DNA of 9,260 bases. Source: a virus (lineage: Duplodnaviria; Heunggongvirae; Uroviricota; Caudoviricetes). The stretch is taken from IMG/VR virus record IMGVR_UViG_2671180543_000004; one strand, written 5' to 3'. This document shows positions 2,191-9,219 of the stretch, piece by piece (positions within the stretch are counted from its first letter, which is position 1; every line of letters begins with the position of its first letter). Below the pieces are notes generated by a model. The model had not been told where the DNA came from and did no database searches. It worked only from the letters and a program-made list of their open reading frames with translations. A program made the position numbers and the translations under genes.

Positions 2191-3219
2191 TTATTTCACC
2201 TGCACCACCACAAACTCATCCGGATCCGGCAGCACCATCAGCGGCGCGGACTGCGTCATGGTGAATTCACGCGCCGGATCACCCACGGTCAGCCAGTGTT
2301 TCGGATAACGGGAAGACGCCACCACGCCTTCAGACAATGCCTGCGCATCCTGAATGGCACCGTAGCAACGAATACCCTCTGCGGCCGTATTTCCCAGTAC
2401 CAGTGTGCCGTCCGGCAGATAACGTTTTTCGGTACCGTCCTCTGCCACATAGGACGTTTTTGCCACCACGATTGCCAGATCACCATAATACCCTTTGAAG
2501 GACACCACCGCCCCCAGGTCTTTCACTGCCGTTTCCAGCTGTGAATTTGAGCCACGACGGGTATCCAGTTTTTCGCGGAACAGCTTAAAGCCATTCAGCA
2601 GACGCCAGACCTTACCATCCATAATGGCAATATTGATGGTGCCGGAAGCAAAATCACAGTACGCATCCAGATCATGCGTCGGATCAAAGGTATCGCGGTC
2701 CTGAGCGCTCCACTCCGTCCCTCCTGCCTGCGTAATGTTATTTCCCACCGACCGGCCAAAATCGACCTCAACAGTTTCAAACTGCTCTCCTTCCATGGTG
2801 TATTTGCCATACAGCACGGCATTCACCGCCTGCATCTCTTCCACCTGGACAATGGCGTGCTCTTCCTGTTTGAGGTTATCGGTGATGATACGCAGGCGAC
2901 GGTAAGCCGGGCCGTTCAGCTGGGCCGGATCTTCACCGGGAAGACGCTCCACCGCCTGCTGGTAATTAAATTCGTGTTTCGGCTTAACGTAGCCCGGGCG
3001 CAGTACACGAGTTTCACCGCCACGGTGACGCAACACCTTTCCTTCAACAACCGGGGAGACATAGGCCGCCACCGGCGTTTTTCCGGTAATTTTGTCCAGC
3101 ATTACCTCTTCGGTATGGAAATTCACCGTACGGCGGAAAAACAGCTCCAGAAACAGCGCACGAAATTTAACTTTTTGTTCGGTATAACCGAGTAACTGGC
3201 GGGTCGTAAACAATCCCAT
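2191..3219 (-). CDS. E: Major capsid protein (lambda gpE-like), 342 aa
   Basis: Alignable along its whole length with lambda gpE (PGYVKPKHE; AIVQVEEMQAVNAVLYGKYTMEGEQF; NNITQAGGTEWS; KEKLDTRRGSNSQLETAVKDLG; VLGNT; TGDPAREFTMTQSAPLMVLPDPDEFV). ATG at 3217-3219 preceded by GAAAGGAA. Stop TAA at 2191-2193. Confidence 0.95.
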   Translation of the reverse strand: MGLFTTRQLLGYTEQKVKFRALFLELFFRRTVNFHTEEVMLDKITGKTPVAAYVSPVVEGKVLRHRGGETRVLRPGYVKPKHEFNYQQAVERLPGEDPAQLNGPAYRRLRIITDNLKQEEHAIVQVEEMQAVNAVLYGKYTMEGEQFETVEVDFGRSVGNNITQAGGTEWSAQDRDTFDPTHDLDAYCDFASGTINIAIMDGKVWRLLNGFKLFREKLDTRRGSNSQLETAVKDLGAVVSFKGYYGDLAIVVAKTSYVAEDGTEKRYLPDGTLVLGNTAAEGIRCYGAIQDAQALSEGVVASSRYPKHWLTVGDPAREFTMTQSAPLMVLPDPDEFVVVQVK

Positions 3220-3276: not shown

Positions 3277-3624
3277 TTACGGCAGCGCTGCGTGACTCAG
3301 GGCACTGCCGGCAAAGGCATTCGCCTTTTTGTGTGTATCCACTCTCTCAGGCCAGTGGATGGCCTCCGTCGCAAAGGTCCCCGACTTGTAATACGTCAGC
3401 ACCGTCTCTGTACCTTCAAGCGGCAGTACCAGTATGCCAACCACATGGCCTGCCTTCTGTCCGTCCCAGACCACCAGTTTCCCGGTATCCTCATCCAGCA
3501 TCAGGGGCGTCAGAGCCGGTGTTGCCGAGGAAATCCCGCTGCTGCCTGTGGCGGTATGGGCCGGATCATTACCGGCAAAAATACGTACTTCCGCACGCTG
3601 TTCAGTGATGGTTTTCGTTACCAT
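3277..3624 (-). CDS. D: Head decoration protein (lambda gpD-like), 115 aa
   Basis: ...DPAHTATGSSGISSATPALTPLMLDEDTGKLVVWDGQKAGHVVGILV...TYYKSGTF...AFAG vs lambda gpD (...[37 protein letters not shown]...GILA...TFYKSGTF...AFAG). ATG at 3622-3624, stop TAA at 3277-3279. Confidence 0.92.
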   Translation of the reverse strand: MVTKTITEQRAEVRIFAGNDPAHTATGSSGISSATPALTPLMLDEDTGKLVVWDGQKAGHVVGILVLPLEGTETVLTYYKSGTFATEAIHWPERVDTHKKANAFAGSALSHAALP

Positions 3625-3763
3625 ATTGTAAAAACCTCATATTGATGGTCAGCACTGACTTCATGGCATGGCCATGAGCATTTTCACGTCCGCATCACCG
3701 TCTGCTGACGTCTGTGGCACGCCACCCTGTACCGCTGCCGGTGAATGGTTCGCCATGAAATGT

Positions 3764-5230
3764 TCAAACATGGCGGTTGTGGATGCAGAAACCGGTTCTG
3801 CCCTGCCTGAGGCTGCCGCCNNNNNNNNNNNNNNNNNNNNNNNNNNNNNNNNNNNNNNNNNNNNNNNNNNNNNNNNNNNNNNNNNNNNNNNNNNNNNNNN
3901 NNNNNNNNNNNNNNNNNNNNNNNNNNNNNNNNTTTTCAGCCTGCGCCTCTGCCCCTTTTGCCTCATCCAGGGCCATAATCTGATCACGAAGTGAGGGTCC
4001 GGCATTCGCCTGCGGTGAAGCAGCCAGAATCGGACGGGCTTTTTCCACCGTCATCTCCGGCATCGCCGCCAGCGTTGCCGCCAGTTGTTCACGTCCTTTC
4101 GCCTCTTCACATGCCATAATGCGATCGGCTTCACTCTGCGCAGATACACCAGATTGTTGCGGTGCCGCCACGGCCAGAATCGCCCGGGCCTGCTCAACGC
4201 TCATACCCTGTTGCCCTGCCAGCATCGTGGCCAGTTGTTCACGTCCTTTCGCTTCCTGACACGTCAGGATCCCCATCACTCGCTGGTTCTCCTGCGCGGC
4301 AGCCTCCGTTGCAGTTAATTGCGGCATAGTGCCTCCTGTATCGTGTGTGTTCAGCGTCGCAGCCATCACGCTGATGGCGTCCGACGCATTGATTAATTCA
4401 TCCGCCAGTTCGGCCTCAATACCGGACTGACCTTCAAAAACGGCGGCCTCTGTTCCCATAACCGCATCCACAGATAAACCGGTATACATCGCCACTTTTT
4501 CAGCAAACATCCGGCGCGCCGCATCAATGCGCTGCTGCATGTCCTGGCGAACCTTTGCTGGCAGGGATTCAAACTGATTGCCATCCACCTTGTGCGATCC
4601 GGCGTAAATCAGCGTGATATCCACACCGGCCTGTGCCAGATGGCCGGCATAGCTGACATGGCCCATCATCACCCCAATGGAGCCGATACGGGATGTCTGG
4701 GTAACCAGCCGTCGGGAGCAGGCCGATGCCAGTAACATGGCGGCTGAACAGGCCGTGTCATTGCACAGTGCCCAGACAGGCTTCAGCTGCCGGAGACGGT
4801 AAATCATGTCAGCGCAGTCAAACGCGCCGGTGGCCTGCCCGCCAGAACTGTCAATGTCCAGCAGTACGCCCCGTACCTGAGTGTCCGCCATTGCCTGCTG
4901 AAGACAGGCGACAATGCCGTCATAGCCAGTCATTCCGGAAAATGGCCGCATGCCACCCAGCCGGTGTACCAGCGTGCCGGTCACCGGCAGTACAGCAATA
5001 CCGTTCACCACCCGGTAAACACGGGCAGGTCGTTTGCCTCCGGCCATGTACTCGTCCGTTTCAGCCAGCATCCCGGGAGCGTCAAGCTGTACCTGCTGTT
5101 GCGGTACCGAAAGGCTTGCTGCGCCCATCTCACGCCCGAGCGCGCAAAAGAAAACCCGCGCATAGGCGGGCTCCAGAAGCAGCGGCTCATTGAATGCCGC
5201 AGCGATAATATGTGAAAGATTACGTCTCAC
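3764..5230 (-). CDS. C: Head protease / minor capsid protein C with C-terminal scaffold (Nu3-like) module; S49/ClpP-like peptidase family
   Basis: N-terminal two-thirds aligns with lambda gpC (AFNEPLLLEPAYARVFFCAL; NGIAVLPVTGTLV; KPVWALCNDTACSAAMLLASACSRRLVTQTSRIGSIGVMMGH; ITLIYAGSHKVDGN). GTG start at 5228-5230, preceded by AGGAG, overlapping the end of B as in lambda. The C-terminal region holds about three 50-aa repeats similar to the single lambda module RIMGILNCEEAHGREEQARVLAETPGMTV. The masked gap 3821-3932 interrupts the 3' end, so the true stop may be 3764 or, in the other frame, 3661. Confidence 0.88.
   Translation of the reverse strand: MRRNLSHIIAAAFNEPLLLEPAYARVFFCALGREMGAASLSVPQQQVQLDAPGMLAETDEYMAGGKRPARVYRVVNGIAVLPVTGTLVHRLGGMRPFSGMTGYDGIVACLQQAMADTQVRGVLLDIDSSGGQATGAFDCADMIYRLRQLKPVWALCNDTACSAAMLLASACSRRLVTQTSRIGSIGVMMGHVSYAGHLAQAGVDITLIYAGSHKVDGNQFESLPAKVRQDMQQRIDAARRMFAEKVAMYTGLSVDAVMGTEAAVFEGQSGIEAELADELINASDAISVMAATLNTHDTGGTMPQLTATEAAAQENQRVMGILTCQEAKGREQLATMLAGQQGMSVEQARAILAVAAPQQSGVSAQSEADRIMACEEAKGREQLAATLAAMPEMTVEKARPILAASPQANAGPSLRDQIMALDEAKGAEAQAEXXXXXXXXXXXXXXXXXXXXXXXXXXXXXXXXXXXXXXGGSLRQGRTGFCIHNRHV
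3933..4380 (-). repeat. Intragenic tandem direct repeat, 150-bp period, about 3 imperfect copies, within the 3' part of gene C
   Basis: Identical 23-mer gccagttgttcacgtcctttcgc at 4080-4102 and 4230-4252. gccagaatcg at 4023-4032 and 4173-4182. Both pairs are 150 bp apart. A more diverged copy sits at about 3933-4080. Protein-level repeats: RVMGILTCQEAKGREQLATMLAGQQGMSVEQARAILAVAAPQ / RIMACEEAKGREQLAATLAAMPEMTVEKARPILAASPQ / QIMALDEAKGAEAQAE. Confidence 0.8.
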
Positions 5231-6813
5231 GTGATGTTGTCTCCTCTTCCGGCCTGCGACTCTCCGCTATCTGCTGCTGATACGCCTGGGCTATCCACAC
5301 CGGACGTGAGAGTCCGGCTTTTTCGCGCTCTGCGGATTCCCTGACCTGCTGGCGGAAAATGTCCTGATAATCTTCGCCCATCAGTGCCAGTTCTTTCTCA
5401 TACGTGCTCAGTCCGGCCTCAATGCGCATCACCGATTCCTGGACCTCCTTGAGCCCGTCAATGGCCATTCTTCCGGAGCTAATCCACTCTGCCCGTGACC
5501 AGGCTGAACGCGCCTGGTAAAAATCAAAACGCGCCCGTGGCGGACGAATAATCCCCCGAAGAAGCGCCTCTTCCAGCCAGCAGGAAAACATCTGCGTGGC
5601 CAGCCGGGCCGCAATAAATTTTCGCCGCCCCATAAAATAGCGCCACGACTCATTGGCGGAGGCGCGGGCACTTGAGTAACTGACCTTCGAGTAATCACGG
5701 GACAACTGTTCGTAGGAAACGCCAAGACCGGCTGCAATATACCGCAGCAGCGCCTGTTCAAGCGCCGAAAATCCATTGTCTGAATCCTGCGCTGTCTGCA
5801 GGTTCAGCGCATCGCCAGGAAAAAAGGTGCGGAATTTTAACACCGCCCAGCGTCACGTTATTCGTGTCATACCAGCGGGTGAACTTCTCCAGAATATTAA
5901 TAAGCGGATTATCCTGCTGACCTTGCGGTGCCCCCGCGATATATTCAAATGCCTTTTCGGTATCAAGTTCACTTTCGATTGTGGCTGCATACATCGCCTT
6001 CACAATGGCCGACTGAAGCTGCGTGGCCTGCAGGGAGTCCAGCATCTTCATCCGCTCCATTACGCTGTAAAACTGATTAGCCCCACGGGTCTGCCCGTCC
6101 TCCACCGGCTCAAAAATATGCAGCATGGCCGGACGCCCGGTGGGAAGCTCACGCGGGATCCGCTCCCAGCGTCCGGCACCAGAGAACGGAAAATCATCCT
6201 CACAGATATGGTACGCAATCGCCCGCCCATACCGATCGACCTCAACCCCGGCCCGCAGAAAGTGGTTCCCCATACCGTGTCCTGGCGTGTCCACCCGTTT
6301 CGGACTCACGGCTTTAAAACGCGTACGGAATAACTGCGTGGTTTCCGTATCCCAGACCGGCTGCACAAAGATTTCGCCGTTAAAGGCATGCACGCCCACC
6401 CCTTCACGGATAAATTCCGTAAACGTGCGTTTCCCTTCCACGTCGATCTCGCCAAACATTCCTTCTGCGTATTCCGACCAGGCTGCTTCCACCTCCCCGA
6501 CAAAACTTTTTGCCGTGGTCTCCCGCATCCCCAGCCAACGCCAGTTCAGACGGTAGCTGATAAGAAACATGTGCCCGACGATATGATCCTTATGCAGGGC
6601 CACCGCATTAGCCGCGATACCGTTATTGCGCACCAGATCATCTGCCCGGGCATTCCCCAGACGCAATGCAGGCAACAGGGCCGCATCGGCACTCTGCGCC
6701 GGTGGTAACCACTCTGCCATTTGCCCGCCAAATCCTGCGCCGCCTCCGTTGTAGCTGAGACTCTCACGAAGCGGAACGCCGTTCACATCAATCAGGACAG
6801 GCGTTCGTTTCAT
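5220..6813 (-). pseudogene. B: Portal protein (lambda gpB-like) split by a +1 frameshift into two ORFs (6813..5758 N-terminal, 5843..5220 C-terminal)
   Basis: N-terminal ORF (MKRTPVLID...GGGAGFGGQ...GNARADDLVRNNG...FEPVEDGQTRGANQFYSVMERMKMLDSLQATQLQSAIVKAMYAATIESELD...LGGVKIPHLF) and C-terminal ORF (FFPGDALNLQTAQDSDNGFS...LLRYIAAGLGVSYEQLSR...SGRMAIDGLKEVQE...) both align with lambda gpB. The frames switch at the T6 run (A6 on plus strand, 5820-5825). Removing one T restores PHLFPGDALNLQ, cf. lambda PHLMPGDSLNLQ. Stop TAA at 5220-5222. Confidence 0.85.
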
Positions 6814-7013: not shown

Positions 7014-8924
7014 TCACTCCTCCGGACAGCTTCGCTGCCAGTTCTTCAAGGGTCGGTTGTGCAGTTGCATCCTTGCGGGATGCAACTGCACAGCCAGATC
7101 AAGTTGCCAGCGTTGCACGGACACACGTAATGCCGCATAGGCATACACCAGGCAGTCCAGCGCTTCGTTACGCCGCTTTTTGTTATCCCACAACAGACGC
7201 ATCTTTCCTTTTTCCCACTTTTCCACCAGTTCCTCCGCCACCAGTTGTTGTGCCTCTGTCTGCGAAAAAATCTCCGGATTATCAGGAAAGCGGATGGCAT
7301 ACGATGTGGCCTCATTCACAGGGGTGGGATCGGCCTTCATTCGGGCATAGAGAATTTCTTTTGCGGTATCCGTCCCCACCTCACACAGATACACACCCCG
7401 CTGATTGCGGGTTTTCGGCATGGTGATCACCGGCTTGCCATAGACAGAGGCACCTTTTACCGGCAGTACCCGGAAAATACCGTGTTTTTTTGACCTCTGA
7501 TACACGATTTCGCCATCGATCCCCCCGATATCCCAGCAGACACGGGAAATGGTCATTTCGGTACCGTCTGCATGGCGGTATTTTTTATTGATCGCCGCAT
7601 CCACACGTAACAGCGTCTCTTCCTCATCAGGACGTCCCATGATGATGATTTTATCCACCAGAAAGGCTTCCTCTCCCGGAGCCCACCCCCAGACATACAT
7701 CTCAAAACGGTTTCGCTGCGAGTCAATGCCCGCCGTCAGATAAACCACCCGGACAGGCACCGTTGCCGTGTAAGGCACAACCTTATCCATCAGTACCTGG
7801 TGATCGAGTTTTTCGCCCACGGCCTCTTCCCAGGTCTCGCCCAGCGTGGTGTTCACAAAAGTTTTCACGCCGTTGGGATCTTTCAGTGCATCCAGCCAGT
7901 CACAGACTATCTGTACCCTGGTGGTGAACGGACTGTACGCCGTCCATATATGGAAAGTGATGGAGCGCGGCGGCGGAATTTCATTACCCGAAGCACTGAA
8001 AAACGTCAGACCGTCACACGTCCACATCCCGGTATTGTCACAAATCCAGCGCCCCCCGGTCTGATCAAGTTCAGACTGACGGATCACGCAGCCATTATGT
8101 TCACACAGGTAATACACCGTTTCCGGTTTACCCTTCTCCCATTTCAGGCCAAACGACGTCGCATCATCGCCAAACTTCAGATACTGCTCCTCCCCGCAAT
8201 GAGGGCAAGGGACATAAAACCGCATGAAATGCGCAGATTCATTCGCAGCTTTTTCAATCTGACAGGAGCCTTTAATTTTTGGCGTTGAACCGCGTATGGA
8301 TTTTGGCCATACCGAACCTTCAATACGTTTATCGCCAAGCAGTGTTGGCGAACCTTCTTTTTCCACATCCGGTTCAAACGAGGAGAGTTCGTCATAGCAG
8401 ACCACATCGACAGATTTTTCACGGTAGTTTTTGGCAGCAGCACCACCCAAACACCAGAACCCCACACCAGAGGAAAAACGCTTCAGTGTGAGCGTATTAT
8501 CCCGGTGTTTCCGGCCCAGCCAGGGAGAAAGTTTTTTCAGGCAAGGAACATCACGAATTGTTGCTTCCACGTGAGACTTCATAAAATCTTCAGCAGCTGA
8601 GTCCGTCGGCTGAAAAAGAAGAGTGTTGCGGGATTTGTGCTCAATAAAATACCCGATCACACCAAGCACCATTTTTGTATAACCAACACGGGCAGATTTA
8701 ATCAGGTTAACTGTACGAATCTCGTCATTGCCCATGCAGTTCATGATGGCGACCTGAAACTGCAGCGTTTTCCATTCCCCCTCACCGTATGACGATTCTT
8801 TAGGCAGGTAATAATTTTGATCGGCCCATTCTACAGCCGTCACCGGCAATACCCTGACCAGTGGCTGCAGTGCGATAGTGACTGCCACCATCATATTACT
8901 CAGTTGTTGTTCTGATATATTCAT
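7014..8924 (-). CDS. A: Terminase large subunit (lambda gpA-like), 636 aa
   Basis: Alignable with lambda gpA along its whole length (MNISEQQ... vs lambda MNISNSQ...; TAVEWADQNYYLPKESSYGEGEWKTL vs PQTAVEWADANYYLPKESAYQEGRWETL; KSARVGYTK ATPase motif; FMRFYVPCPHCGEEQYLKFGD; YLTAGIDSQ; RRNEALDC). The ORF track extends to a TTG at 8981, but homology begins at ATG 8922-8924 (MNIS). Stop TGA at 7014-7016. Confidence 0.95.
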   Translation of the reverse strand: MNISEQQLSNMMVAVTIALQPLVRVLPVTAVEWADQNYYLPKESSYGEGEWKTLQFQVAIMNCMGNDEIRTVNLIKSARVGYTKMVLGVIGYFIEHKSRNTLLFQPTDSAAEDFMKSHVEATIRDVPCLKKLSPWLGRKHRDNTLTLKRFSSGVGFWCLGGAAAKNYREKSVDVVCYDELSSFEPDVEKEGSPTLLGDKRIEGSVWPKSIRGSTPKIKGSCQIEKAANESAHFMRFYVPCPHCGEEQYLKFGDDATSFGLKWEKGKPETVYYLCEHNGCVIRQSELDQTGGRWICDNTGMWTCDGLTFFSASGNEIPPPRSITFHIWTAYSPFTTRVQIVCDWLDALKDPNGVKTFVNTTLGETWEEAVGEKLDHQVLMDKVVPYTATVPVRVVYLTAGIDSQRNRFEMYVWGWAPGEEAFLVDKIIIMGRPDEEETLLRVDAAINKKYRHADGTEMTISRVCWDIGGIDGEIVYQRSKKHGIFRVLPVKGASVYGKPVITMPKTRNQRGVYLCEVGTDTAKEILYARMKADPTPVNEATSYAIRFPDNPEIFSQTEAQQLVAEELVEKWEKGKMRLLWDNKKRRNEALDCLVYAYAALRVSVQRWQLDLAVQLHPARMQLHNRPLKNWQRSCPEE

Positions 8925-9219
8925 CGAGTAAATCCGGTAATTTATCCCCCGCACGCGCGCACTGATTCGCTCCCTTAGCAATAAGGATTTTCAGATGATC
9001 AATATGACGCGGCGTTAAATCCGGGAACTGTCGTTGCATGGACAAAGGAATGGAGTCAAGCGTACTGGATAAAGCCATCGCCAGCTTACTAAGGGCAAAA
9101 ATACAAAATCCGGTATCGATAAGATTTCCTTTTGACACCTGATTTTTTAACTGCTGTGCGACAGCCTGTTCTGCGGTCAGTTCCCATCTGGCAATGAGTA
9201 GTTTGAGGTGTACTGGCAA
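8896..9219 (-). CDS. nu1: Terminase small subunit (lambda Nu1-like), C-terminal portion only; possibly N-terminally truncated
   Basis: Translation ...TGFCIFALSKLAMALSSTLDSIPLSMQRQFPDLTPRHIDHLKILIAKGANQ...LPDLLDEYI aligns with the C-terminal half of lambda Nu1 (recalled ...TAFCTFVLSRIAGEIASILDGLPLSVQRRFPELENRHVDFLKRDIIKAMNK...IPGLLSEYI). Stop TAA at 8896-8898. The 3' end overlaps the A start (8924) by 29 nt, as in lambda. The ORF opens with TTG at 9217-9219 and an in-frame TAG lies at 9229-9231, so the N-terminal domain is not encoded in this frame. Confidence 0.75.
   Translation of the reverse strand: MPVHLKLLIARWELTAEQAVAQQLKNQVSKGNLIDTGFCIFALSKLAMALSSTLDSIPLSMQRQFPDLTPRHIDHLKILIAKGANQCARAGDKLPDLLDEYIRTTTE

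Follow-up and report, generated by a model that had tools for sequence, protein, structure and literature searches.

An old, diverged triplication of a scaffold module in a phage-21-type protease/scaffold gene

The window analysed here, a 9,260-nt stretch of tailed-phage DNA (Caudoviricetes; IMG/VR record IMGVR_UViG_2671180543_000004), carries a protease/scaffold gene of the phage 21 gp5 or lambda C type in which the scaffold gene (gene 6 in phage 21, Nu3 in lambda) is nested in frame. In our reading, to which we give a probability of about 0.85, the scaffold half of this phage-21-type gene is made of three modules of ~40 residues, the Tri boxes, which are ancient, under selection, prone to recombination and putatively engaged in a contact role. 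The repeat itself is the Tri-box triplication of phage 21 and was already on record. GenBank M81255, the phage 21 head operon (early 1990s), annotates the units inside gene 6 as repeat_region Tri1, Tri and Tri3 box with the remark 'function unknown; putative', and the two complete units of the window and the start of the third lie at these annotated positions. In the literature collection searched for lambda Nu3 and phage 21, no paper describing the repeat was found.

The three repeat units

The units and the longest exact match discussed between them are as follows.

4157..4291, minus strand: unit 1 (Tri1), ENQRVMGILTCQEAKGREQLATMLAGQQGMSVEQARAILAVAAPQ, residues 314-358 of the protein; hidden Markov model (HMM) score 65 bits, independent E-value 2e-22
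4010..4132, minus strand: unit 2 (Tri2), EADRIMACEEAKGREQLAATLAAMPEMTVEKARPILAASPQ, residues 370-408; HMM score 54 bits, independent E-value 8e-19
3933..3991, minus strand: visible start of unit 3 (Tri3), LRDQIMALDEAKGAEAQAE(K...), residues 416-432; HMM score 13 bits
4230..4252, minus strand: 23-nt exact repeat, copy in unit 1 (from the sequence)
4080..4102, minus strand: 23-nt exact repeat, copy in unit 2, encoding (E)AKGREQLA (from the sequence)

Three in-frame copies had been proposed in an earlier note on this DNA, and the window does show two complete units together with the beginning of a third. They were identified with an HMM built solely from 83 single-copy units of distant relatives, which matched the window protein three times and lambda gpC once, the single lambda copy stated in the note. 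The third match is weak in the window, where the mask truncates the unit; at L013, a near-identical locus without the mask, it scores 48 bits. On the close homologues P0002 and P0101, the PHROG head-scaffolding and capsid-assembly (lambda Nu3-like) families each aligned in three stretches. No match over the C-terminal 200 residues was obtained with Pfam, NCBIfam or the PDB sequences, and neither Pfam nor NCBIfam contains a model of the unit.

At the DNA level the units span 3933-4291 and are 51-66% identical. Two repeat pairs were found, one of 94 nt (4023-4116 and 4173-4266, 73% identity, spacing 150) and one of 32 nt (3954-3985 and 4095-4126, 75% identity, spacing 141), and the 23-nt exact match claimed between adjacent copies was located in units 1 and 2. 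Comparison of 3933-4172 with itself recovered the expected periodicity, identity being highest at offset 150 (47%, versus a mean of 26.5 +/- 3.7% over offsets 30-399). The units are nevertheless spaced by 50 residues from the first to the second and by 47 from the second to the third, with no strict 150-nt period, and Tandem Repeats Finder reported no array in the window or in L013. Given the 51-66% nucleotide identity and the missing array, the repeat is an old, diverged triplication of a protein domain and not a DNA tandem array. What stands of the proposed 150-bp tandem repeat at 3933-4380 is therefore the repeat, by both the best offset and the HMM; the strict period, the DNA array and the extent do not, the interval 4292-4380 being the start of the nested scaffold and the end of the protease part, outside the units.

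Unit 3 runs into a masked gap, in which the earlier note had suspected a further copy.

3821..3932, no strand: run of 112 N, in place of which near-identical genomes have 48 nt (ACTGGCGGCCTGTCCGGGGATGACCGTGGAGAATGCCCGGGCTGTACT)

Eight loci with flanks 99-100% identical to the window all carry these 48 nt, and the chromosomes that harbour them also encode the window's major capsid protein unchanged. Translated, the 48 nt give (K)LAACPGMTVENARAVL, the last part of unit 3, and with them the frame runs uninterrupted for 501 aa down to 3661; 501 aa is also the length of the protease/scaffold product in unmasked near-identical (99.9-100%) genomes. A fourth copy beneath the mask was rejected, since the near-identical genomes have only these 48 nt and a further full copy would need ~198 nt. 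The apparent break of frame in the window arises only because the run of N is 64 nt too long. The other such run (193-442) has 250 N where near-identical genomes have 184 nt, so that both exceed the sequence they replace by 64-66 nt, and the length of a run is thus uninformative on the reading frame or on hidden content.

Selection, predicted fold and candidate roles

Between the window lineage and phage 21, the ratio of nonsynonymous to synonymous substitution rates (dN/dS) is 0.09 for the units (0.03-0.12 per unit) and 0.11 for the protease domain, at a dS of 0.2-0.7. A low dN/dS combined with a high dS means that each unit is conserved as a peptide and not as a DNA site. AlphaFold2 (AF2), run on an alignment of 25 units, predicted three short helices (positions 2-9, 18-25 and 32-41) with a mean predicted local distance difference test score (pLDDT) of 82. 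In the AF2 model of the whole scaffold each unit adopts the same helix pattern (pLDDT 75-83), and the predicted template modelling score of 0.28 indicates that the model has no fixed arrangement between units, as expected of independent beads on flexible linkers. Short linkers of Pro, Gln, Ala and Ser connect the units, and a tail of ~50 residues comes after them.

By analogy with other scaffolds, the unit may be a protein-protein contact module. Each unit would fold alone as a small three-helix bundle and would contact another scaffold molecule, the major capsid protein or the portal, which would make the scaffold of about 200 aa a multivalent 'beads on a string'. As the protease shares the C-terminus of the scaffold, the units would also tether or load the protease inside the procapsid, where both would later be degraded. 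Lambda Nu3 has been reported to interact with itself and with C, B and E (PMC3224144), and other scaffolding proteins bind the coat through helical or helix-turn-helix motifs (PMC11565965). The helix-turn-helix domain of P22 and the coat-binding motifs of phi29, SPP1 and 80alpha provide a functional analogy, each being a small helical module in a largely flexible scaffold (PMC11565965), but they are single C-terminal modules whereas the units here form a tandem array; the unit showed neither a sequence match nor a significant fold match to these modules.

Several points weigh against three equivalent, independently folded contact modules in service in this genome. Unit 3 reads EAKGAE, having lost an Arg that is otherwise nearly invariant, which leaves the equivalence of the three units in doubt; it is also only partly visible within the window itself. 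Lambda gpNu3 is reportedly intrinsically disordered, going by the title of Medina et al. 2011, and the predicted fold of the unit may be marginal or formed only upon binding. The portal gene of the window is frameshifted (see below), and its protease/scaffold gene is therefore probably out of use.

Among the alternatives the one that survives best, although we consider it unlikely, holds that the extra units are a spacer or ruler that replaces the lambda linker and keeps the scaffold at ~200 aa, with no binding beyond that of the single ancestral unit. Lambda Nu3 reaches 201 aa with one unit and a linker and phage 21 gp6 reaches 200 aa with three units and little linker; the window's major capsid protein and lambda gpE share 63% identity, and the same shell geometry is assumed; and alleles of two to four units occur within intact-looking head modules. 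A mere spacer would however be expected to drift, whereas purifying selection on each unit is as strong as on the protease domain, the core motif of each unit has been kept over the divergence of E. coli and Salmonella, and exactly three units are present in all phage isolates. We rate the spacer low because a dN/dS of ~0.09 in every unit is not expected of one.

That the boxes instead act as DNA or RNA sites (a CII-type TTGYN6TTGY site, an antisense promoter or another binding site), the peptide repeat being incidental, is highly improbable. In OL657228, a phage 21 record, an antisense promoter is flagged and two TTGYN6TTGY matches are annotated in this region, and one match lies inside unit 2 of the window (4075-4088). 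The window however contains two matches where 1.57 are expected by chance and no promoter-like site was found within the units, and a role as CII site or antisense promoter was rejected on these grounds. A dS of 0.2-0.7 alongside a dN/dS of ~0.09 also argues against a nucleic acid site, as does the persistence of the unit as a peptide, with differing codons, in distant taxa.

Age, distribution and copy-number alleles

The protein family was searched with HMMER against 1.84 billion cluster representatives, and relatives of at least 400 aa were kept, one per 50%-identity cluster. One unit was found in 88 of the 123 close relatives and three in P0219 alone; in the other 34 none was detected. As most relatives carry one unit, three units are the derived state of an enterobacterial sub-lineage. 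Units at the same position are 79, 74 and 68% identical between the phage-21 type and its Salmonella relatives, compared with 56-62% for different units in one protein, which places the triplication before the split of these two groups. The Salmonella Gifsy-1-type gpC homologues and the P0219 cluster likewise have three units, those of P0026 and its relatives being positionally orthologous; they differ in overall identity (54-64%), in a unit 3 that retains the Arg of EAKGRE and in their C-terminal tails. Copy number across relatives is thus mostly one, with three in the phage-21 type and other counts in the alleles described below.

Lambda gpC (439 aa) is 53% identical to the 501-aa protein of the close relative O121, shares the S49 protease and the gene neighbours, and, like the window gene, includes a nested in-frame scaffold (201 aa, versus 200 aa). 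Its one unit, RIMGILNCEEAHGREEQARVLAETPGMTVKTARRILAAAPQ at residues 357-402, follows a Thr/Ala/Gln-rich linker of ~60 aa, whereas in the window there are three units with hardly any linker. Relative to lambda, the expansion described in the earlier note is therefore genuine, being a derived state; it is neither recent nor novel, given phage 21, the Salmonella relatives and the annotation in M81255. All 18 phage records with this scaffold (15 distinct isolates) have a 600-nt gene with three units. The scaffold segment is present in 1870 of 5426 complete E. coli genomes (about a third), and the full three-unit length was found at 58 of the 60 best places taken as a spread sample in E. coli.

We give next to no credence to a recent, lineage-specific 150-bp DNA tandem expansion in this prophage, perhaps including a fourth copy hidden by the mask. 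The 23-nt exact match between units 1 and 2 would fit such an event, and comparable events are known elsewhere: locus L014 has a perfect 150-nt duplication, and the units of the P0024 lineage are strongly alike. Against it stand the low nucleotide identity of the units with no array, the presence of three positionally orthologous units in phage 21, the 15 isolates and the Salmonella relatives, and the 48 nt found in the gap where a further copy would require 198 nt. The length of the exact match is itself due to a point difference from phage 21, K versus N in the EEA(K/N)GRE of unit 2.

As a separate observation, the three to four units of the E. coli lineage represented by P0024 and P0060 are mutually 82-91% identical (GDQIMALPEAKGREQLAQ...), which implies that the units there either expanded far more recently or evolved in concert.

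Alleles with other unit numbers were surveyed in the 120 best homologues of the full-length protein, a query with the 200-aa scaffold having returned mostly fragments.

451/452 aa: two units, with at least four different deletion junctions of 49-50 aa
472 aa: 29-aa deletion, P0113, of the window's own lineage (53 contigs, named Shigella flexneri)
482 aa: 19-aa deletion within unit 2, P0127 (at least 1000 contigs)
551 aa: four units, L014, with a perfect 150-nt duplication in two 100% identical copies
657 aa: six units

Chimeric units occur at the crossovers; in one example unit 1 is fused to unit 2 inside EAKGREQLA, that is, at the 23-nt identity. The neighbouring head-module genes of the two-unit and four-unit alleles are of essentially the usual length. 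No copy number other than three was found among the 15 phage isolates. The earlier suggestion that the repeat is a substrate for recombination is borne out in other E. coli/Shigella genomes by these two-, four- and six-unit alleles, the partial deletions and the chimeric units. Unequal recombination and slippage, acting through the residual similarity of the units, would generate all of them.

Direct repeats of 12 nt that resemble GCGTTGCCGCCA and encode LAA motifs were also noted at 4072-4083 and 4159-4170, with further members of this family at 4060-4071 and 4354-4365. The 87-nt spacing of the first two equals the 29-aa deletion of P0113 and suggests that this deletion arose through slippage between short repeats. 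In a further set of proteins, P0181 (721 aa), P0184 and P0185 (577 aa) and P0222-P0225, the protease/scaffold is fused to tail-fibre-like or other phage sequences, the break lying past unit 3 or, where the unit is the single one of lambda, inside or past it. Such fusions suggest either remnants of rearranged prophages or chimeras that arose in assembly from several lambdoid prophages.

The gene, its neighbours and a possible meaning of unit number

The genes of the window are all on the minus strand, and the features around the units are listed in the direction of transcription, with entries marked ORF taken from the list of open reading frames (ORFs).

about 7014-8981, minus strand: terminase large subunit (ORF), with a gpW-like gene next in order
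5220-6813, minus strand: portal gene (ORF), after the gpW-like gene
3661..5230, minus strand: protease/scaffold gene (phage-21 gp5 / lambda C type, S49), GTG at 5228-5230 and stop at 3661-3663
4352..4795, minus strand: S49 (SppA/ClpP-like) peptidase domain, residues 146-293 (Pfam PF01343, E 2.1e-35)
4333..4338, minus strand: Shine-Dalgarno AGGAGG, 5 nt upstream of the nested scaffold ATG (from the sequence and the phage 21 annotation)
3661..4327, minus strand: nested in-frame scaffold gene (phage 21 gene 6 / lambda Nu3 analogue; annotations OL657228 and M81255)
3664..3820, minus strand: C-terminal tail of scaffold and protease (…AAASGRAEPVSASTTAMFEHFMANHSPAAVQGG…DADVKMLMAMP; from the translation)
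3277-3624, minus strand: decoration protein, 115 aa (ORF)
2191-3219, minus strand: major capsid protein, 342 aa (ORF)

The ORFs and the annotated relatives place the protease/scaffold gene within a lambda-like head module, after the portal gene and ahead of those for the decoration and major capsid proteins. Its identification as an analogue of lambda C/Nu3 agrees with this synteny, with the S49 domain, which also matches the SppA structures 3rst/4kwb (E ~3e-14, PDB sequence search), and with the nested scaffold start. The nested gene begins at an ATG at 4325-4327 with MPQLTATE, has a predicted length of 200 aa in unmasked relatives and ends on the C-terminus common to the protease; in phage 21 the equivalent of the AGGAGG site is annotated as the putative ribosome-binding site (RBS) of gene 6. 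Phage 21 is the closest named phage, with ~90% DNA identity across the head module, and the scaffold part of P0002, a 93%-identical relative, is 95.5% identical to phage 21 gp6. Genes 5 and 6 of phage 21 (M81255, OL657228) share with the window the gene order, the nested 501-aa and 200-aa products, the RBS and the three unit positions, and differ only by point differences and in the frameshifted portal of the prophage that holds the window copy.

The tail has a predicted helix over TTAMFEHFMANHS (AF2, residues 159-172 of the scaffold model). This helix (3664-3760, ...STTAMFEHFMANHSP...) resembles the first helix of the unit (xDRIMAxxEA) and also the motif TALDRLMQGAP that follows the unit of lambda, and in many relatives (P0227, P0228, P0233, P0093 and P0095) the single unit is followed by a comparable F/L-E/D-x-x-M motif and then Pro. 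The tail helix may represent half a unit or else a distinct motif for capsid targeting.

A mosaic breakpoint was observed within gene C at about 4330-4400 in comparison with loci L001 and L002. E. coli RMDEC364 differs from the window at 3 positions in 900 nt of the protease domain and at 40 in the 420 nt of the units, and an O121 strain is identical to the window across the scaffold part and differs upstream. Together these patterns show that the protease and scaffold halves have been swapped by recombination near the nested start. At the other end, the GTG start of gene C overlaps the 3' end of the portal gene by 11 nt (5220-5230), as in annotated relatives, an arrangement consistent with translational coupling.

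Relative to a 99.9% identical E. coli prophage, the portal gene has gained 1 nt within a run of T (T6, 5820-5825, minus strand), which divides it into two ORFs (351 and 207 aa). As near-identical Shigella-type chromosomes (L009) show this split in their ORF calls too, the frameshift probably reflects genuine inactivation by mutation, and the prophage is probably defective. The locus probably resides in such a defective prophage of a Shigella flexneri-type chromosome (Shigella/E. coli).

As a discovery the repeat has small value, the triplication having been recorded decades ago in a segment that about a third of complete E. coli genomes possess. Of modest value are the unit itself, predicted to be a conserved three-helix mini-domain that most lambda-like protease/scaffold proteins contain once, and its natural alleles. 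It is conceivable, though doubtful, that the number of mini-domains is a functional and evolvable setting of scaffold valency and length, with the two-, three-, four- and six-unit alleles all competent for assembly. If so, unit number would alter the kinetics or fidelity of procapsid assembly or the loading of the protease, and the Tri-box array would be a natural allelic series of the multivalent scaffold-capsid contacts that build a T=7 shell. Public alleles of two to six units with defined junctions could be used to probe scaffold valency and length in capsid assembly.

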